From Escherichia coli (GTDB taxonomy: Bacteria; Pseudomonadota; Gammaproteobacteria; Enterobacterales; Enterobacteriaceae), in assembly GCF_024502345.1 (NCBI RefSeq), contig NZ_JALDNN010000001.1: DNA of 64,000 nt, one strand, 5' to 3'. How positions within the stretch are numbered: the stretch's first letter is position 1; each line of letters starts with the position of its first letter. Shown here in pieces: positions 1,510 through 62,366 of this stretch. The translations under genes and the position numbers were made by a program. The notes below the pieces were generated by a model that had not been told where the DNA came from, did not search any database, and saw only the letters and a program-made list of their open reading frames with translations.

Positions 1510-2871
1510 TTACTTCTCCAGTTGGCGTAATATCTTATTAACTTTATCAAAAGTTTCCTGATATTCCGCTTCTTCCTGGCTATCGGCGACAATTCCACCG
1601 CCCGCAGAGCAGTATATTTGTCCGTTAATGGCAGTCAGCGTGCGGATAGTAATGCTGGTATCCATGTTGCCGCAAAAGCTCAAATAGCCAATGCTGCCGC
1701 ACCAGGCATTACGTCGCTGCGGTTCCAGTTCGTCGATAATTTCCATAGCCCGTACTTTCGGAGCCCCGGTTATTGAGCCACCAGGAAAAGCTGCGCGCAG
1801 CAGATCGCTGGCGTGTAACTGTTCTGGTAGTCGCGCCGTTATAGTGCTGACCAGATGATGCACGGCAGGGAAGGGTTCCACCACGAAGAGCTCTGGTACT
1901 TTTACCGAACCGGCTACGGCAACACGACCGATATCATTACGCATTAAATCGACAATCATCAGATTTTCGGCACGATCTTTCGCTGAGTTCGCCAGTTTTT
2001 CTGCTTGTTTGCTATCTTCCTGAGGATCGGGCAGGCGTGGTAGCGTGCCTTTAATCGGGCGGGTCTGGATTTCACTATTATCACAAAGAATAAACCGCTC
2101 TGGCGAAAGGCTTAAAATTGCACCCTGTTCAAGACGTAAAAAAGCGCTAAATGGCGCGCGGTTGGCCTGATTAAGCTGAAGGAATGCCTGCCATTCATCG
2201 CCAGAATAGGTCGCATGAAAACGCTGGGCGAGATTCACCTGATAGCAATCACCGCTGTGCAGATATTCCTGTACCAGGCGAAATTTTTCGCCGTACTGCT
2301 CGCGGGTCATATTGGATTGCCAGTCGGAAGTGAGCGTGAAATCTTCCTGCGGCGAGAATTGCTGGCTTTCCAGCCAGGCCCGACGGGCATTGACATCATT
2401 ATGACTCAGCAAAGAAACTGTATGACGCTGGTGGTCGACAATGAGCGCCCAATCGTAGATACCCACTGCCATATCCGGCAGAACGATATCTTGTTCCGCA
2501 ATTTCTGGCAGTGACTCAAAACGGCGGCCCAGATCGTAGCCAAACAACCCCAGTGCGCCGCCCTGAAATGGCAAATCTTCGTTATGCGTTGGGCGAATGT
2601 CTGCGCGATCCAGCACCTGCTGGAGCACCTGTAGCGGGTCATCAGTGGTCGTTGTGCGTTTTTCGCTTTCACTAACAATGGTTTCTTTACCTAAAGTGGT
2701 TAAAGTGCAAATCGGATCGGCGACCACAATATCAAAGCGGCTATACGGATGATCGGCATAGCCGGAGTGTAAAAGCATCGCCCACGGCAGGTGGCTTAAG
2801 CGGGAGAAATAAAATTCAGCGGCGTCCTGACGCCAGGGTAAAGTAATCACAGAGGGAGATAACGTCTTCAT
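1510..2871 (-). CDS. pabB: aminodeoxychorismate synthase component I
   Basis: 453-aa ORF, anthranilate/ADC synthase family (PIKGT, GGGIVADS motifs). Confidence 0.92.
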   Translation of the reverse strand: MKTLSPSVITLPWRQDAAEFYFSRLSHLPWAMLLHSGYADHPYSRFDIVVADPICTLTTLGKETIVSESEKRTTTTDDPLQVLQQVLDRADIRPTHNEDLPFQGGALGLFGYDLGRRFESLPEIAEQDIVLPDMAVGIYDWALIVDHQRHTVSLLSHNDVNARRAWLESQQFSPQEDFTLTSDWQSNMTREQYGEKFRLVQEYLHSGDCYQVNLAQRFHATYSGDEWQAFLQLNQANRAPFSAFLRLEQGAILSLSPERFILCDNSEIQTRPIKGTLPRLPDPQEDSKQAEKLANSAKDRAENLMIVDLMRNDIGRVAVAGSVKVPELFVVEPFPAVHHLVSTITARLPEQLHASDLLRAAFPGGSITGAPKVRAMEIIDELEPQRRNAWCGSIGYLSFCGNMDTSITIRTLTAINGQIYCSAGGGIVADSQEEAEYQETFDKVNKILRQLEK

Positions 2872-2944
2872 CAGTCCTGACTCTACTGGCTATGTGCCGG
2901 GTAGCATGAAATAATTAGCGCCAACAATTTAGCAGGAGTTAACA

Positions 2945-3124
2945 ATGTTTGCAGGTTTACCTTCACTCACCCATGAACAGCAGCAAAAAGCTGTCGAGCG
3001 GATCCAGGAACTGATGGCACAAGGGATGAGCAGCGGCCAGGCAATCGCGCTGGTGGCAGAAGAGCTGCGTGCCAACCACTCCGGCGAGCGAATCGTGGCG
3101 CGTTTTGAGGATGAAGACGAGTAA
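2945..3124 (+). CDS. yoaH: UPF0181 small protein, 59 aa
   Basis: ATG at 2945, translation [59 protein letters not shown]; below ORF-track length cutoff. Confidence 0.8.
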
Positions 3125-3182
3125 CACACTAATCCGTATCGATTTCGTTATAGAAGCCGATGATCATTTGATTGTGAGAAAA

Positions 3183-3215
3183 AGGACGCTTTTTATATGT
3201 GATTAAAAGCGTCCT
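3183..3215. terminator. bidirectional stem-loop between convergent yoaH and yoaC
   Basis: aggacgcttttt ... aaaagcgtcct inverted repeat flanked by A/T runs. Confidence 0.5.
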
Positions 3216-3302
3216 GACCCATTTATGCTGATATAAATTTAACTCAGACCAGTGCTTTTAGTTCTTCCTGCATATATGTTGAAAAGTATTCAGGATTTTT
3301 AA

Positions 3303-3602
3303 TCACAGAACGTTCACCTGTCTCCATTTTTTTGCCCATCCAACCATTTTTTCCGTGAACCCAGGGTTCCAGCCTTCCTGGTCAGCTCGCGCCGTAATAT
3401 CAGCGGCACTCGCGGGTACTCCCAGTTCTTTTAAATATTTAAAGATTCCCTTCGCCGTGCTTTCATTCATCGAACTTGGTGTTGGCGCTGATACATCCAT
3501 GGCACCAATGAAATCCAGGGCTTTATCTATTACAGCAGGCATATTCTTATCCTTAAAATTAACCATGTTATCGATAAGGCTATATATGACCTTAATTTGC
3601 AT
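3303..3602 (-). CDS. yoaC: DUF1889 family protein
   Basis: 99-aa ORF; conserved position. Confidence 0.78.
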   Translation of the reverse strand: MQIKVIYSLIDNMVNFKDKNMPAVIDKALDFIGAMDVSAPTPSSMNESTAKGIFKYLKELGVPASAADITARADQEGWNPGFTEKMVGWAKKWRQVNVL

Positions 3603-3963
3603 CTAATATCAAAGGGATTATAACGATATGGCACGAGTTAACCTGTTGACATTCAGGTGTTTTAAAAGTAGCAGCTCATGGTGTGTTATCCAGTAAGATG
3701 GAGAAAATTAACTGTCAGTCCGCACGCTATAACCAGATTGTTCAGCTAAGAAAGAAAACCAGAGTTGCTAATCAAAGGGCGAACACAACGGCATGTTTAT
3801 GTTTATTTATATAGTTAGTTTTATAGATAAAATTGAAATTATAAATATAAATAATGAATTAGCAGAAGCATCAACAGTAATATCTTATTCTCTGGTCGAT
3901 TTATGTAAAACCGACCAGTATTATCGATAAATTATCGTCTGACTTATTTTGCTTCGATAAAGC

Positions 3964-4308
3964 TTACACCGCAGCCACAATCTTAATTTCAACTTTATAC
4001 TTCGGGTTCATCAAACCCGCTTGTACCGTGCAGCGCACCGGCGCATGACCCGCGACAACCCAGGCATCCCACGCTTTATTCATCGCCGCGAAGTCGTTTT
4101 TATCGGCCAGGAAAATGGTGGCATCCAGAATACTCGATTTATTGCTGCCCTGTTTTTCCAGCACGGCGTCAATCTGAGCCAGCGTGTTGGCGGTTTGCTC
4201 AAAGGCATCGGCGTCGAGGTTTTCCGGTACACCAGTGTAGTAGAGCGTGTTGTTGTGGATTACTACATCAGACCAGCGGGCTTCAGCATCGATACGAACG
4301 ATAGTCAT
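3964..4308 (-). CDS. yoaB: RidA/YjgF family protein
   Basis: ORF trimmed to second ATG (MTIVRIDAEARW...), 114 aa; GAGGA 7 nt upstream. Confidence 0.85.
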   Translation of the reverse strand: MTIVRIDAEARWSDVVIHNNTLYYTGVPENLDADAFEQTANTLAQIDAVLEKQGSNKSSILDATIFLADKNDFAAMNKAWDAWVVAGHAPVRCTVQAGLMNPKYKVEIKIVAAV

Positions 4309-4439
4309 CATTTTGTCCTCATTATCCTTCCATTTTCGTGCTGCAAAGACTGCCACAATGTGAGGTCGCCGTCACCACTTCAACTGGCGAAAGCGCCCTC
4401 ATCCTGACATAATCCCTGTTCAAATCAACAGGGGGTAGT

Positions 4440-6350
4440 GTGACGGACGATTTTGCACCAGACGGTCAGCTGGCGAAAGCGATACCAGGCTTTAAGCCGC
4501 GAGAACCACAGCGACAGATGGCGGTAGCCGTCACCCAGGCGATAGAAAAAGGCCAGCCGCTGGTGGTGGAAGCAGGAACCGGTACGGGCAAAACCTACGC
4601 TTACCTGGCTCCTGCGCTGCGGGCGAAAAAGAAAGTCATTATCTCGACCGGCTCAAAAGCGTTGCAGGATCAGCTCTACAGCCGCGATTTGCCAACAGTC
4701 TCAAAGGCATTGAAATATACGGGCAACGTGGCGCTGCTGAAAGGGCGCTCAAACTACCTCTGCCTCGAGCGTCTCGAACAGCAGGCGCTGGCGGGGGGCG
4801 ATCTGCCGGTACAAATCTTAAGTGATGTGATCCTGCTGCGCTCCTGGTCTAATCAAACAGTCGATGGTGATATCAGCACCTGCGTCAGCGTGGCGGAAGA
4901 TTCACAGGCGTGGCCGCTGGTCACCAGCACCAACGACAACTGTCTTGGCAGCGACTGCCCGATGTATAAAGATTGCTTTGTGGTCAAAGCACGTAAAAAA
5001 GCGATGGACGCCGATGTGGTGGTGGTAAACCATCATCTCTTTCTGGCGGATATGGTGGTTAAAGAGAGTGGATTTGGCGAGTTGATCCCGGAAGCGGACG
5101 TCATGATCTTCGACGAAGCCCACCAGCTACCGGACATTGCCAGCCAGTATTTTGGTCAGTCACTCTCCAGTCGACAACTGCTCGACCTGGCAAAAGACAT
5201 CACCATCGCCTACCGCACCGAATTAAAAGACACCCAGCAGTTACAAAAGTGCGCTGATCGTCTTGCCCAGAGTGCGCAGGATTTTCGTCTGCAACTCGGT
5301 GAGCCAGGTTATCGCGGTAACCTGCGTGAGCTGTTAGCTAATCCGCAAATTCAGCGGGCATTTTTACTGCTCGATGACACCCTGGAACTTTGTTATGACG
5401 TGGCGAAACTGTCACTGGGGCGTTCCGCCTTGCTGGATGCGGCATTTGAGCGCGCCACGTTGTATCGCACACGGCTGAAGCGGCTAAAAGAGATCAATCA
5501 GCCGGGCTACAGCTACTGGTACGAATGCACTTCGCGCCATTTTACTCTGGCTCTCACGCCGCTCAGCGTGGCGGATAAATTCAAAGAGTTAATGGCGCAA
5601 AAGCCCGGTAGCTGGATCTTCACCTCAGCAACGCTGTCGGTGAACGACGATCTGCATCATTTCACCTCGCGGCTTGGGATAGAACAGGCGGAGTCGTTGC
5701 TATTGCCAAGCCCGTTTGATTACAGCCGCCAGGCGTTACTCTGTGTGCCGCGCAACCTGCCGCAAACCAATCAACCGGGTTCCGCGCGGCAACTGGCGGC
5801 TATGCTGCGCCCGATCATCGAAGCTAACAACGGTCGCTGTTTTATGCTTTGTACCTCGCACGCCATGATGCGCGATCTGGCCGAGCAGTTCCGCGCTACC
5901 ATGACGCTTCCCGTATTATTGCAGGGGGAAACCAGCAAAGGGCAACTGTTGCAGCAATTTGTCAGTGCCGGTAACGCGCTTCTTGTGGCAACCAGCAGTT
6001 TCTGGGAAGGGGTGGACGTGCGTGGCGATACGCTGTCATTGGTGATTATCGACAAATTGCCGTTTACCTCTCCTGATGATCCACTGTTAAAAGCGCGCAT
6101 GGAAGATTGCCATTTGCGCGGTGGCGACCCGTTCGATGAAGTACAACTGCCGGATGCGGTGATTACTCTCAAGCAGGGGGTAGGGCGACTGATTCGCGAC
6201 GCCGATGATCGCGGCGTGCTGGTGATTTGCGATAATCGGCTGGTGATGCGCCCTTACGGTGCGACGTTTCTCGCCAGTCTGCCGCCCGCGCCGCGCACCC
6301 GTGACATTGCCCGTGCGGTTCGTTTCCTTGCGATACCATCCTCCAGGTAA
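4440..6350 (+). CDS. yoaA: ATP-dependent DNA helicase, DinG/Rad3 family
   Basis: 636-aa ORF, GTG start after GGGGG; Walker A (AGTGTGKT), DEAH box (FDEAHQL). Confidence 0.9.
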   Translation: MTDDFAPDGQLAKAIPGFKPREPQRQMAVAVTQAIEKGQPLVVEAGTGTGKTYAYLAPALRAKKKVIISTGSKALQDQLYSRDLPTVSKALKYTGNVALLKGRSNYLCLERLEQQALAGGDLPVQILSDVILLRSWSNQTVDGDISTCVSVAEDSQAWPLVTSTNDNCLGSDCPMYKDCFVVKARKKAMDADVVVVNHHLFLADMVVKESGFGELIPEADVMIFDEAHQLPDIASQYFGQSLSSRQLLDLAKDITIAYRTELKDTQQLQKCADRLAQSAQDFRLQLGEPGYRGNLRELLANPQIQRAFLLLDDTLELCYDVAKLSLGRSALLDAAFERATLYRTRLKRLKEINQPGYSYWYECTSRHFTLALTPLSVADKFKELMAQKPGSWIFTSATLSVNDDLHHFTSRLGIEQAESLLLPSPFDYSRQALLCVPRNLPQTNQPGSARQLAAMLRPIIEANNGRCFMLCTSHAMMRDLAEQFRATMTLPVLLQGETSKGQLLQQFVSAGNALLVATSSFWEGVDVRGDTLSLVIIDKLPFTSPDDPLLKARMEDCHLRGGDPFDEVQLPDAVITLKQGVGRLIRDADDRGVLVICDNRLVMRPYGATFLASLPPAPRTRDIARAVRFLAIPSSR

Positions 6351-11885: not shown

Positions 11886-12095
11886 TTAGTCCTTAAATAC
11901 CTGCGCCAGCAGATTATGGAAATGGGCGATACCATGTTCGGAAATGCCGCTACCGCTACTGTCGGCCATGATGCGCCCCTGACCACGATAGCCACGCGAT
12001 TTCAGCCCTTTCTGTACGCTTTCAACCAGACGTAAATCTTCCGGACGGAACACATCGCGATACCACTCAATCAGCGATTTTTGCTCGTCGGTTAA
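11886..12095 (-). pseudogene. yeaW: 3-prime remnant of carnitine monooxygenase oxygenase subunit; N-terminal Rieske and catalytic domains absent
   Basis: 73-aa ORF ends 56 bp upstream of yeaX and its 5-prime end overlaps the dmlR start region; tail LTDEQKSLIEWYRDVFRPEDLRLVESVQKGLKSRGYRGQGRIMADSSGSGISEHGIAHFHNLLAQVFKD matches my recollection of the YeaW C-terminus. Confidence 0.6.
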
Positions 12096-12119
12096 CTGGT
12101 GAAACATAAAACACGAATC

Positions 12120-21888: not shown

Positions 21889-22068
21889 GATAAATGGCAC
21901 TCCTTCGGTTAGTGAAACGAGAAAACCAGATAAAGTTCGATTGCGGCCTGGCACAGGGGCGCTAATTATACTCATCTCTGCGCCGCTGGGGAGGGGAAAT
22001 TTAGGGGTAATAGTAATAAATTGTATGCAAAAGCCACGCAAAAAGCATGGCTCTGAATATTTTTGCAC

Positions 22069-23544
22069 TTAAATATGATGAATAATCACTTTGTTGCCCC
22101 CCTCGCTTTTCGCTTCGCGTAAGGCTTTATCTGCTTCCGTCATGACAAGCGAGATATTACGCGTGTCACCCGTTGAAAAAACCGTGCCAATACTGATGGT
22201 CATTTGTTCAGGAACATCATATCTGTTACTAAAGCCGGTCAGGAGTTCGACATTTTTACGCATACGTTCCGCAATGATTTTTGCCTGGGCACTATTGAGT
22301 TCGGTAAATAGCAAGCCAAACACCTCACCCTCCAGTCGCGCTAAAATATCATCGGGGCGGATGCTTTGCTGGATAATATCGACAATTGAAACCAGCACTT
22401 TATCACCCACACGATGTCCCCATTGGGCATTTATGCGCTTGAACTGATTAATATCAACCAGCATGACACAGAAGTCCTTAACAACAGGTCGCGACAATAA
22501 TGACTCTACGCTGTTGAAAAAGTAGCGCCGATTATAAATATTGGTCAGCACATCATGAACTGCCAGTTTGCTGGAGAGTTGCAGCTCCTGAAAAATGTTA
22601 TAAATCAGAAAAGACACAACAAACAGTTTACTGGAGACTTCAATCCCGCGACTGATATACCAGATGGTATAATTATACTCATCCAGAGTCAGTAGAAGTA
22701 AGTTGCAGCATAGCGATGCCAGACATAATAATGCTATTAACGGCCATAGTTCGCTGGCTAATCGTGTACGCATGATAATAAAGAACAGTAAAAATGCCCA
22801 CAGACAAACCAATATTTTTGTATAGTTGATTCCCCAGGTCGCAGTATGGTTGTCCGGACAGTAATCGACGACATACAAAGAATAGTCAGCGTTATAACTG
22901 CTCAGATTGTGTGCCAGAAGGGGAAAAACTAAAAAAGGAATCAGCGCCAGCAACAGAATGCCAGTTTTTTTCTTATTGTTGTCAAGGATGTTGTCTTTTC
23001 CATAACAAAAGAGCGCCAGCAAGGTTAAACAAATAAAACTGAGTTGGCGGAAAATATAGAAAATAGAAACATCATTCGACTTTGTCTGGATCAGTGTACT
23101 GCCGTTAATTGGTTTATGGATAATTACAATGGTTTCAACTAAATAGATAAGGCCACTTAAAAATGCAAGGCTTAAAATGAGTGTTGGTAAAATTTGTTTG
23201 TTAGTGAAATATTTCATTAACATGAAAAGAAAAATGACGGCGTTAAGGAAAAACAAAGCCACAACAACCATCAGGTAATTCATCTGTGGGATGAGTTTTA
23301 CATTTGTGTTTTCGTTATATAAGGTAGTAATGCAAAATAAAATTAACGTCAGCAATAAACTGAAAATAAAAAAGCTTTGAGCTTTTAATTTTTGTGTACC
23401 CATAGAAACCATAAAAAGGAGAGCAATGTGAGTGCTGGATTTTATTGATGGCAGAGATATATAGTTTTGACCAGGATCAATTTTCGTTAACGATAAAAAA
23501 TATTTAAAGAATAACCCCATGGAAATACGTGTTGACTGAATCAT
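22069..23544 (-). CDS. dgcI: GGDEF-domain membrane protein with degenerate active site
   Basis: 491-aa ORF; motif reads EGEVF (22318..22332) instead of GG(D/E)EF. Confidence 0.88.
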   Translation of the reverse strand: MIQSTRISMGLFFKYFLSLTKIDPGQNYISLPSIKSSTHIALLFMVSMGTQKLKAQSFFIFSLLLTLILFCITTLYNENTNVKLIPQMNYLMVVVALFFLNAVIFLFMLMKYFTNKQILPTLILSLAFLSGLIYLVETIVIIHKPINGSTLIQTKSNDVSIFYIFRQLSFICLTLLALFCYGKDNILDNNKKKTGILLLALIPFLVFPLLAHNLSSYNADYSLYVVDYCPDNHTATWGINYTKILVCLWAFLLFFIIMRTRLASELWPLIALLCLASLCCNLLLLTLDEYNYTIWYISRGIEVSSKLFVVSFLIYNIFQELQLSSKLAVHDVLTNIYNRRYFFNSVESLLSRPVVKDFCVMLVDINQFKRINAQWGHRVGDKVLVSIVDIIQQSIRPDDILARLEGEVFGLLFTELNSAQAKIIAERMRKNVELLTGFSNRYDVPEQMTISIGTVFSTGDTRNISLVMTEADKALREAKSEGGNKVIIHHI

Positions 23545-23690
23545 TTTTCCGAATGATTGTTTTCTGGAACTAAATTGTGTAAAGGTTATGCTGTCATATT
23601 TAAAGCGGTTGTAAGCTAATGTATGTAATAAATGAGATAATTTACAGTGAGCTAAAAATCAGCCAGGCGATAATGACCCGGCTGATAGTT

Positions 23691-24986
<1,296 letters not shown>

Positions 24987-32230: not shown

Positions 32231-32390
32231 ATGAGTTATCTAGTATTTAAGCCTGTTATTAAGGGAGGGCAAATATACTTGTTAGGACGTCGTGTTTTAG
32301 CTGCAAGTAGGTTAAATGCAACACTGACAAGTATTATCTGGCCTACAATGTCATTGAGGAAATGTAGGCCAGAGATGAATTCAACTAATA

Positions 32391-40047: not shown

Positions 40048-41036
40048 ATGAAAAAAGTTTTATTACAAAACCATCCTGGGAGCGAGAAGTATTCTTTTAA
40101 TGGCTGGGAAATATTTAATAGTAATTTTGAACGGATGATTAAAGAAAATAAGGCCATGCTGCTTTGTAAGTGGGGGGGGGGTATTTAACATGTGTTGTCG
40201 CTGTAATGTTTGTATTCGCAGCGATAACATCCAACGGTTTGAATGAAAGAGGCCTGATTACCGCGGGATGCTCATTTCTTTATCTATTAATTATGATGGG
40301 GCTTATTGTTCGGGCCGGTTTTAAAGCAAAAAAAGAACAGCTGCATTATTATCAGGCTAAAGGTATTGAGCCGCTCAGTATCGAGAAATTACAGGCGCTA
40401 CAATTGATCACACCTTATCGATTCTATCATAAGCAATGGTCTGAAACGCTGGAGTTCTGGCCGCGAAAGCCTGAACCTGGCAAAGATACCTTCCAATATC
40501 ATGTGCTTCCTTTTTACTCGATCGATATCATAAGTAAAAGACGCGAGTCTTTAGAGGATCAATGGGGTATCGAAGATAGCGAAAGTTATTGTGCCTTAAT
40601 GGAGCATTTTCTTTCTGGCGACCATGGAGCCAATACCTTTAAAGCAAACATGGAGGAAGCCCCAGAGCAGGTTATCGCCTTGTTGAATAAATTTGCTGTT
40701 TTTCCCTCTGACTATATCTCTGATTGCGCTAATCATAGCTCCGGTAAATCCTCGGCGAAGCTAATATGGGCGGCGGAATTATCATGGATGACCTCGATAT
40801 CAAGCACAGCTTTTCAAAACGGGACAATTGAAGAAGAACTGGCCTGGCATTATATAATGCTTGCTTCTCGAAAGGCGCACGAGTTGTTCGAAAGCGAAGA
40901 AGATTATCAAAAAAATAGTCTAATGGGATTTCTTTACTGGCATATCTGCTGCTATCGCAGAAAGTTAACGGATGCTGAACTTGAAGCGTGTTATCGTTAC
41001 GACAAGCAGTTTTGGGTGATGCTGCCAACTTACTGA
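40048..41036 (+). pseudogene. ynjI: DUF1266 inner membrane protein gene, disrupted twice (poly-G frameshift and IS1 insertion near 3-prime end)
   Basis: Frame from ATG 40048 (MKKVLLQNHPGSEKYS...CKW) stops at 40188; downstream ORF 40170..41036 is in a different frame; the two join in-frame if the G10 run were G8 or G11; last 6 codons lie inside the IS1 inverted repeat. Confidence 0.75.
40172..40181 (+). repeat. G10 homopolymer tract inside ynjI
   Basis: Ten consecutive G read directly at 40172..40181. Confidence 0.95.
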
Positions 41037-41069
41037 TTTAGTGTATGATGGTGTTTTTGAGGTGCTCCA

Positions 41070-41345
41070 GTGGCTTCTGTTTCTATCAGCTGTCCCTCCT
41101 GTTCAGCTACTGACGGGGTGGTGCGTAACGGCAAAAGCACCGCCGGACATCAGCGCTATCTCTGCTCTCACTGCCGTAAAACATGGCAACTGCAGTTCAC
41201 TTACACCGCTTCTCAACCCGGTACGCACCAGAAAATCATTGATATGGCCATGAATGGCGTTGGATGCCGGGCAACCGCCCGAATTATGGGCGTTGGCCTC
41301 AACACGATTTTCCGCCATTTAAAAAACTCAGGCCGCAGTCGGTAA
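41070..41345 (+). CDS. insA: IS1 InsA
   Basis: 91-aa [46 protein letters not shown]... Confidence 0.93.
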
Positions 41346-41767
41346 CCTCGCGCATACAGCCGGGCAGTGACGTCATCGTCTGCGCGGAAATGGACGAACA
41401 GTGGGGATACGTCGGGGCTAAATCGCGCCAGCGCTGGCTGTTTTACGCGTATGACAGGCTCCGGAAGACGGTTGTTGCGCACGTATTCGGTGAACGCACT
41501 ATGGCGACGCTGGGGCGTCTTATGAGCCTGCTGTCACCCTTTGACGTGGTGATATGGATGACGGATGGCTGGCCGCTGTATGAATCCCGCCTGAAGGGAA
41601 AGCTGCACGTAATCAGCAAGCGATATACGCAGCGAATTGAGCGGCATAACCTGAATCTGAGGCAGCACCTGGCACGGCTGGGACGGAAGTCGCTGTCGTT
41701 CTCAAAATCGGTGGAGCTGCATGACAAAGTCATCGGGCATTATCTGAACATAAAACACTATCAATAA
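41264..41767 (+). CDS. insB: IS1 insB frame; expressed as InsAB' transposase by -1 frameshift from insA
   Basis: 167-aa ORF in -1 frame relative to insA. Confidence 0.88.
41321..41327 (+). promoter_or_regulatory. A6C programmed -1 ribosomal frameshift motif of IS1
   Basis: AAAAAAC at insA/insB frame overlap; insA reads LKNSGRSR*, -1 frame reads KKLRPQSV... Confidence 0.8.
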
Positions 41768-41880
41768 GTTGGAGTCATTACCCAGTTTTGGGAGCACTAC
41801 AGTAAGAAATGCCGTTGGCCCATAAGAAATGTTCCCTGGGGAGCATCATCCGTTAAATACTCATAAACGCCTGAAATTTT

Positions 41881-41974
41881 GCCGGGGGCGCTGCGCTTGC
41901 CCGGCCTACATTAGAGCGTAACTGCAATGAATTGTGCCCATTTGTAGGCCTGATAAGCGTAGCGCCATCAGGCA
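41881..41974. repeat. BIME: two inverted REP elements
   Basis: gccgggggcgctgcgcttgcccggcctaca and tgtaggcctgataagcgtagcgccatcaggc. Confidence 0.7.
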
Positions 41975-41982
41975 TTTACAAC

Positions 41983-43326
41983 TTAAATCACACCCTGCGC
42001 CAGCATCGCATCGGCAACCTTCACAAAACCGGCAATGTTCGCGCCCTGCACGTAGTTGGTTTGCTCACCTTCACCACCATGCTCAACACAGGCATGGTGG
42101 ATATCCAGCATGATGTGATGCAAACGTGCGTCAACTTTCTCGGCTTTCCAGCCCAGGCGCGCAGCGTTTTGCGCCATTTCAAGGCCTGACGTTGCTACAC
42201 CGCCAGCATTAGCCGCTTTACCCGGTGCAAACAGTACGCCTGCCTGCTGGAACAGTTCAGTCGCTTCGATGGTGGTCGGCATATTTGCCCCTTCGGCGAC
42301 GGCTTTAACGCCATTGGCGATAAGCTGATGCGCGGCGTCAACATCCAGTTCGTTCTGGGTAGCGCAAGGCAGGGCGATATCAACCGGTACAGACCACGGC
42401 TGTTGGCCTTCGAGATAGACCAGACCAAATTCTTTGGCGTAATCTGCCACTCGACCATCGCGGCTGGCTTTGATTTCGATAAGACGTGCCAGTTTCTCTT
42501 TCGTGAATCCGCTTTCATCAACTACAGTGCCGCTGGAGTCTGACGCAGTGATCACCCGAGCACCAAATTCCATCGCTTTTTCGATAGCGTACTGGGCGAC
42601 GTTGCCGGAGCCAGAAACGGAAACGCGCATCCCTTCAAAACCCATACCGTGGCGTTTTAGCATTGCTTCTGTGAAATAAACCAGACCGTAGCCGGTAGCT
42701 TCCGGGCGAATAAGACTGCCGCCAAATGAAAGGCCCTTACCGGTGAAGACGCAGGCGGTATTGTTGGAGAGCTTTTTCATCATCCCCGCCATAAAGCCGA
42801 CTTCACGACCACCAACCCCGATATCACCTGCCGGAACGTCGGTATCCGCGCCCAGGTGGCGATACAGTTCAGTCATCAGCGCCTGGCAAAAACGCATCAC
42901 TTCACCTTCGCTTTTTCCTTTTGGATCGAAATCGCTGCCGCCTTTACCACCGCCCATCGGCAGAGTAGTCAGGGCATTTTTGAAGGTTTGTTCGAAGCCG
43001 AGGAATTTAAGAATGGAGAGGTTAACTGACGGATGGAAACGCATACCGCCTTTGTACGGGCCGATGGCAGAGCTGAACTGCACACGCCATGCACGGTTGA
43101 CCTGTACCTGATTGCGATCATCAACCCATACCACGCGAAACTGGATCACGCGCTCCGGTTCAACCAGACGCTCCAGTAATGACATCTGGCGATATTTTGG
43201 ATTTTGTTCAAGAAAAGGCCAGAGTGTGGTCATTACTTCACGAACGGCTTGCGCGAACTCGGTTTGATTCGGGTCGCGCTTTTGGACATGGTTGAGGAAT
43301 GACTCCAGAGAATATGTCTGATCCAT
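41983..43326 (-). CDS. gdhA: NADP-specific glutamate dehydrogenase
   Basis: 447-aa ORF MDQTYSLESFLNHVQKRDP... Confidence 0.97.
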   Translation of the reverse strand: MDQTYSLESFLNHVQKRDPNQTEFAQAVREVMTTLWPFLEQNPKYRQMSLLERLVEPERVIQFRVVWVDDRNQVQVNRAWRVQFSSAIGPYKGGMRFHPSVNLSILKFLGFEQTFKNALTTLPMGGGKGGSDFDPKGKSEGEVMRFCQALMTELYRHLGADTDVPAGDIGVGGREVGFMAGMMKKLSNNTACVFTGKGLSFGGSLIRPEATGYGLVYFTEAMLKRHGMGFEGMRVSVSGSGNVAQYAIEKAMEFGARVITASDSSGTVVDESGFTKEKLARLIEIKASRDGRVADYAKEFGLVYLEGQQPWSVPVDIALPCATQNELDVDAAHQLIANGVKAVAEGANMPTTIEATELFQQAGVLFAPGKAANAGGVATSGLEMAQNAARLGWKAEKVDARLHHIMLDIHHACVEHGGEGEQTNYVQGANIAGFVKVADAMLAQGVI

Positions 43327-62181: not shown

Positions 62182-62331
62182 TGTTGACTCCGAATGCTGG
62201 TTATCTATCCAGTGTAACAGGCGGGAAGCGATTAAAAAAGAGGCGGGTTGATGACAAAGGTTACACCGTCTGACGTGCTACGCCTGTCAGGCCTATTCGA
62301 CTCCTGCAATGCATTGAATTTGCATAGTTTT

Positions 62332-62366
62332 GTAGGTCGAATAAGGCGTTCACGCCGCATCCGGCG
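62332..62366. repeat. REP element between cho and nadE
   Basis: gtaggtcgaataaggcgttcacgccgcatccggcg. Confidence 0.6.

Follow-up and report, generated by a model that had tools for sequence, protein, structure and literature searches.

An IS1 insertion within ynjI, next to the BIME at the 3' end of gdhA in Escherichia coli

The DNA considered here, referred to as the window, is a 64-kb stretch of an E. coli genome (contig NZ_JALDNN010000001.1), which by alignment corresponds to positions 1,897,675 to 1,821,696 of K-12 in inverted orientation, with ~98.2-98.9% identity. Among complete E. coli genomes, the best matches reach only ~98.4-98.9% identity to the window over 24 kb. The window contains ynjI, a DUF1266 gene, which is interrupted by a copy of IS1; the end of ynjI is followed by a pair of REPs and then by gdhA on the opposite strand (Table 1). 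The window also differs from K-12 in other places. At 12093-12097, there is the junction of a 3.7-kb deletion (K-12 1,881,836 to 1,885,578; dmlA to yeaW), and at 32240-32386, a 145-bp filler stands in place of the 9.2-kb ydjE-ydjL block of K-12. This filler is a variable segment with a REP-like border, as it holds inverted REP "feet" (CTGGCCTAC and GTAGGCCAG, separated by 17 nt, at ~32331-32371).

Table 1. Features of the ynjI-gdhA region, in window coordinates
Feature	Position	Strand	Basis
ynjI (DUF1266), 5' part	40048-41014	+	alignment to K-12 ynjI, Pfam DUF1266
G10T tract, ynjI frameshift	40172-40182	+	K-12 has G5T4
TSD, left copy, CAGTTTTG	41007-41014	.	K-12 empty site and flank overlap
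IS1, complete 768-bp copy	41015-41782	+	both IRs exact, ORFs, Pfam
IRL of IS1	41015-41037	+	exact match to canonical 23-bp repeat
insA	41070-41345	+	ORF in IS1
insB' frame	41264-41767	+	ORF overlapping insA
A6C frameshift motif, AAAAAAC	41321-41327	+	-1 frameshift site of IS1
IRR of IS1	41760-41782	-	exact match to canonical 23-bp repeat
TSD, right copy, CAGTTTTG	41783-41790	.	K-12 empty site and flank overlap
ynjI 3' tail, 27 codons + stop at 41864-41866	41783-41866	+	alignment to K-12
REP-A, y-like, CTAC at its + strand end (iREP), TGCCGGGGGCGCTGCGCTTGCCCGGCCTAC	41880-41909	+	y foot, inverted-repeat arm
Head-to-head linker, 34 nt	41910-41943	.	resembles shortened L motif
REP-B, z2-type, GTAG at + strand start, GTAGGCCTGATAAGCGTAGCGCCATCAGGC	41944-41973	-	Z2 alignment
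gdhA, NADP-specific glutamate dehydrogenase, intact, 447 aa	41983-43326	-	ORF, Pfam ELFV_dehydrog

The element at 41015-41782 is a member of the IS1 family in its length and IRs, in its insA and insB' frames with the A6C motif and the corresponding domains, and in its 8-bp TSD. A motif search of the 64-kb window found the two IRs (GGTGATGCTGCCAACTTACTGAT and GGTAATGACTCCAACTTATTGAT) exact and 768 bp apart, an arrangement of which none was expected by chance, and the window has this one copy of IS1. Its reading frames match the Pfam domains Zn_ribbon_InsA, HTH_Tnp_IS1, and DDE_Tnp_IS1 (PF03811, PF12759, and PF03400; E values of 1e-21 to 1e-78), and the element differs from the IS1A and IS1B copies in RefSeq E. 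coli genomes at 1-8 positions. Known insertions of the family into AT-rich DNA of E. coli and Shigella have the same 768 bp, 23-bp IRs, insA/insB' frames with A6C, 8-bp TSD, and AT-rich target; compared with these, the present copy is novel in location only. As the initial annotation had stated, insA reads toward gdhA, which is on the opposite strand, and both IS1 and ynjI are thus convergent with gdhA. A 23-nt segment within insB (GCGACGCTGGGGCGTCTTATGAG; 41504-41526, IS1 nt 490-512) agrees with 21 of the 23 positions of the z1 REP core, a score that was reached neither by any of 1000 shuffles nor by any of 77 chunks of 768 bp taken from the real sequence of the window. A functional z1 REP-like hairpin within IS1 was considered and rejected, given that divergent IS1 variants carry 5 substitutions in this segment, and the match is probably a coincidence.

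Comparison with K-12 defines the point of insertion. The empty site in K-12, GACAAGCAGTTTTGGGAGCAC, has a single CAGTTTTG; in the window this sequence flanks IS1 on either side, and the two flanks overlap by 8 bp. The TSD is therefore given as 8 bp and would be 9 bp only if the first G of IS1 were counted as target; both lengths are normal for IS1 (PMC12428005). CAGTTTTG has a T-rich core with C and G at its edges, and a T-tract core with G or C at its borders is shared by several TSDs of this locus (CAGTTTTG, CAGCTTTTC, and GCTCTTTTC). IS1 entered after nt 965 of the 1041-nt ynjI and left a tail of 84 nt, stop included. An intergenic or spacer location of IS1 was consequently rejected, since the DNA between IS1 and the REPs holds these last 84 nt of the coding sequence. 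By translation, the interrupted ynjI' reading frame enters IS1, where it meets a stop after six codons (VMLPTY).

None of the 5,426 complete E. coli genomes has this ynjI::IS1 junction, nor was a 35-mer spanning the right junction found among the GTDB species representatives. The exact YnjI'-IS1 fusion ORF was nevertheless recovered from 20 contigs, which come from human-gut and other metagenome assemblies and from public sequencing runs and which end inside IS1; the protein collection also gives an NCBI source for it. Its presence in 20 contigs indicates that the junction is real and comes from a circulating lineage. Being absent from the 5,426 complete genomes and recurrent in gut metagenome contigs, the junction is usable as a lineage marker.

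The gene that IS1 entered was most likely inactive already. The G10T tract adds a net 2 nt relative to K-12 and shifts the ynjI frame near codon 45. The G10 allele is found at an identity of at least 99% in 305 E. coli genomes, many of them 100% identical, and none of these has IS1 at the window's site; strain SE11 carries the allele, and RefSeq marks its ynjI as a "frameshifted" pseudogene. Because the allele is common and not one of the 5,426 complete genomes has the IS1 junction, the frameshift is most likely older than the insertion, an order that is read from allele frequencies rather than from a tree. In composition, ynjI is an AT-rich island, with a GC content of 37-45%, versus 52-58% for topB and gdhA. 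It has no megablast match in ~36% of E. coli genomes. In one genome without ynjI (GCA_044160525.1), the gap between topB and gdhA is ~80 bp and contains one y-type REP, a configuration that suggests that ynjI may be an island flanked by REPs.

The initial annotation had placed a pair of inverted REPs about 90 bp from the right end of IS1 and just downstream of the gdhA stop, and both statements agree with the measured distances: 97 nt separate IS1 from REP-A (41783-41879), and REP-B ends 9 nt from the stop codon of gdhA (41983-41985, - strand). The K-12 RefSeq record has no repeat_region feature at gdhA-ynjI, and the identity of the REPs was therefore tested by alignment, using the Y, Z1, and Z2 sequences of PMC11208160 as queries. 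Apart from one inserted base, REP-B agrees with 29 of the 30 positions of the Z2 consensus. REP-A agrees with the Y consensus at 26 of 35 positions and keeps the y foot (TGCCGG...CCGGCCTAC); it would be a short, divergent y variant, and its assignment to this type is loose. The arms of the pair form a 24-nt inverted repeat that is 83% complementary, and the predicted fold of the gdhA 3' region has an energy of -54.5 kcal/mol (z = -5.1 versus shuffles). A search of Rfam returned nothing in 40900-42200, even at E = 1. REPs are imperfect palindromes of ~30-37 nt; judged by the foot tetranucleotide (GTAG or CTAC), the consensus match, and the fold, both palindromes are real REPs, and the mismatch with the REP consensus that had been named as grounds for abandoning the initial annotation was not observed. 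REP-B also holds a natural IS621 target, the 11-mer ATCAGGCCTAC, on the - strand (target from PMC11208160).

By the definition in PMC3333891, the sequence features of this pair make it an atypical BIME, with y-like and z2 REPs and a long L-like linker. It differs from BIME-1 in that the partner REP is z2 rather than z1 and in that the linker lacks a typical IHF site (none at ≤2 mismatches), and from BIME-2 in that z2 is combined with a 34-nt L-like linker instead of a short S and in that it is present as a single copy, where BIME-2 usually has copies in tandem. It resembles atypical BIMEs in its head-to-head y-like and z2 REPs between convergent genes. Atypical BIMEs occur in multiple copies (PMC3333891); the gdhA BIME is single-copy and is conserved across E. 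coli. The 116-nt ynjI-gdhA spacer, in which it lies, has one and the same sequence in 25 of the 33 loci that were compared, among them K-12 and other loci free of IS1. Since the BIME is the same in K-12 and in loci without IS1, it must be older than the insertion. At 62264-62366, the window has a second BIME, in which an L linker of 35 nt, containing an IHF site with 1 mismatch (ATTCAATGCATTG), separates a z-like REP from a y REP (31/35); it is BIME-1-like and has no IS nearby. Compared by eye, the linkers of the two BIMEs have in common CTGCAATG...GAATT.GC...TTT.

An effect of IS1 on the expression of gdhA is unlikely on the evidence of the sequence, since the promoter of gdhA is at the end of the gene that faces away from IS1, ~1.5 kb from the element, and the BIME at the 3' end of gdhA is unchanged relative to K-12; moreover, ynjI already converged on gdhA before IS1 arrived. 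GdhA with exactly this sequence is widespread in E. coli. Scans for promoters and terminators in the region of IS1 and the BIME, including the interval between IS1 and gdhA, gave nothing above shuffle expectation.

To place this insertion among others at the same locus, 5,426 E. coli genomes were searched with synthetic queries in which an IS1 end was joined to the right flank in both orientations. Such joins were found in 26 genomes in the orientation of the window and in 14 in the opposite orientation, and other searches added a few more. In total, IS1 lies in or beside ynjI in ~45 of the 5,426 genomes, at ~32 further positions and in both orientations, giving ~33 distinct boundaries when the window's own is included. 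The alignment spans convert exactly to boundaries, as verified on 22 fetched loci. Of these exactly mapped loci, 15 have simple insertions, 6 have IS1-adjacent deletions that remove most of ynjI, and 1 has an IS1 composite in the BIME. On a reference scale in which ynjI occupies 444-1484 and the BIME 1495-1591, the simple insertions, with TSDs of 8-9 bp, are at 361, 664, 667, 681, 778, 891, 932, 1012, 1080, 1181, 1201, 1320, 1329, 1357, and 1401, the last being the site of the window.

The boundaries show no gradient toward the BIME. Counted in 200-bp bins from 401 to 1600, they number 4, 8, 6, 4, 7, and 3, which is a flat distribution, and the BIME itself received 1 of 16 insertion events, against ~1.2 expected for a segment whose 97 bp make up ~8% of the locus; these counts cover one locus, with events taken without phylogenetic correction. 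The single event within the BIME is found in strain CFSAN061761 (NZ_CP042903.1, ~1750-5003), where an IS1-corA-ysgD-IS1 composite lies in the linker at position 1528, with a 9-bp TSD, ATTAGAGCG, that corresponds to window 41910-41918. This composite also carries a truncated phosphodiester glycosidase gene; from its sequence, it appears to have mobilised a second copy of corA. In two other strains, E4 and strain 53, IS1 copies of opposite orientation to each other have left boundaries at 426 and 428, just upstream of the ynjI start. These boundaries are only 2 bp apart and adjoin different ~950-bp deletions, each of which reaches the 3' end of ynjI; they may reflect either a micro hot spot or descent from one ancestral copy.

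As a control, the IS1 end was joined to three other segments of the window, namely the 5' part of cdgI, the yoaC region, and ynjC. For the 5' part of cdgI (~23.1 kb) and the yoaC region (~3.4 kb), IS1 was found in at least 40 genomes, at ~12 positions among the matches listed. Both segments (~22000-24000 and 3000-4000, respectively) have a GC content of 36-42%, no REP nearby, and no IS1 in the window. For ynjC, with 56% GC, there was no IS1-adjacent place among the matches listed, a result that is only suggestive. A passage of PMC8265650 that cites Zerbib 1985 likewise gives AT-rich regions as hot spots of IS1.

In the window together with 100 kb of K-12, ~0.7% of positions fall inside a REP cluster or no more than 94 bp from one. 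K-12 has 584 REPs (PMC3333891), and from this number the genome-wide share of such positions can be estimated at roughly 1.5-2%. The median number of IS1 places per E. coli genome is ~10. With up to ~1.5-2% of positions qualifying, a single IS1 as close as 100 bp to a REP is unremarkable, and among tens of IS1 copies one such case is to be expected.

Given all of these findings, it is very probable that the window records a routine transposition of IS1 into ynjI, an AT-rich, dispensable, and already pseudogenic target, and that the older, conserved BIME had no detectable part in the choice of site. In this explanation, the regional preference of IS1 for AT-rich DNA would have picked the 3' part of ynjI, and the insertion would have been kept at no cost, as ynjI was already inactive. 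With the promoter and the 3' REP structures intact, the expression of gdhA would be unaffected.

An improbable alternative, though the best placed of those considered, is that IS1 recurs in ynjI because loss of YnjI is advantageous, so that the pattern reflects selection instead of target preference. The ~32 positions in both orientations among ~45 genomes would fit this idea, as would the several IS1-mediated deletions of most of the gene, its lack of a megablast match in about a third of genomes, and its frameshifted state in hundreds. However, in the window ynjI was already frameshifted near codon 45, and an insertion at codon 321 adds no further loss of function. Furthermore, the like recurrence of IS1 in other AT-rich segments points to target preference combined with tolerance.

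Targeting by the REPs, in which the BIME or proteins bound to it draw IS1 nearby, is less probable still. It was encouraged by the statement in the initial annotation that IS elements often insert near REP/BIME sequences. Other IS do target REPs, namely IS1397, IS621, and ISPpu9/10 (PMC1525189); in addition, an IS1 composite is present in the BIME linker of CFSAN061761, and no simple insertion was found closer to the BIME than the one in the window. Nevertheless, REP-targeting elements enter the REP at a fixed position, and the window's IS1 is neither of type 1 nor of type 2 in the sense of Tobes and Pareja, as both REPs are intact and the element lies 97 nt away in the coding DNA of ynjI. In Shigella flexneri 2457T, a REP was present in the flanking extragenic space of 6 of 101 IS1 copies (Tobes and Pareja, PMC1525189, Table 1), far under the 45% of REP-flanked copies by which those authors define an association. 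The survey of IS1 insertion sites for REP proximity that had been proposed earlier thus comes out negative both in these published data and at the present locus, where the boundaries are spread evenly over ynjI, the BIME has about its expected share, and AT-rich segments without a REP were hit to an equal extent (among the matches listed). For IS1, therefore, the general statement is not supported.

A variant with a slightly smaller probability is that IS1 is weakly drawn by the BIME, to a degree that depends on distance, by way of local supercoiling or of REP-bound gyrase or Pol I together with convergent transcription. The bin that precedes the window's site (1201-1400) has 7 boundaries, above some other bins, and ~33 events leave room for a weak local effect near the 3' end of ynjI. 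If such a pull were real, the final ~200 bp of ynjI would form a mild hot spot, receiving IS1 somewhat more often than AT-richness alone accounts for. A connection between this pull and the z1-like segment of IS1 is more speculative.

The least probable explanation is that an IHF-bent BIME captured the transpososome through IHF bound to the IS1 ends. These ends have IHF consensus sites with 0 and 1 mismatches, and a hot spot of IS1 beside an IHF site in pBR322 is reportedly described in the older literature. The L linkers of BIME-1 often have an IHF site (PMC3333891), but an IHF site in the linker of the gdhA BIME was rejected, as there is no match to WATCAANNNNTTR there at ≤2 mismatches; the sole 2-mismatch site of the region lies in REP-B, such sites occur ~0.9 times per 100 bp anyway, and the window's other BIME, with its 1-mismatch site, has no adjoining IS1.

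How a REP-specific element behaves at this very BIME can be seen in E. coli strain 53 (NZ_CP048359.1, 2748-4024), where IS621 occupies the z2 REP directly after GTAG, with a 2-bp AG (CT) TSD, at a point equivalent to window 41947/41948. REP-B is thus a target of a REP-specific element. (The IS1 of strain 53 and its adjoining 942-bp deletion of ynjI are present in addition.) The window's IS1 resembles IS621 of the IS110 family and IS1397 of the IS3 family in lying close to a BIME. IS621, however, enters the z2 REP itself, at the CT core of its target ATCAGGCCTAC, and has a TSD of 2 bp (PMC11208160), whereas the window's IS1 lies in coding DNA at a distance of 97 nt from the BIME, has a TSD of 8 bp, and shows no sequence relation to a REP.

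Taken together, these results make the IS1 near the gdhA BIME an event of a familiar kind at a familiar kind of site; its proximity to the BIME is coincidental. The case provides a useful negative: an IS1 beside a BIME is no sign of REP targeting. What IS1 follows is AT-rich, dispensable DNA; entry into the REP itself is the mark of truly REP-specific elements, of which IS621 is one.
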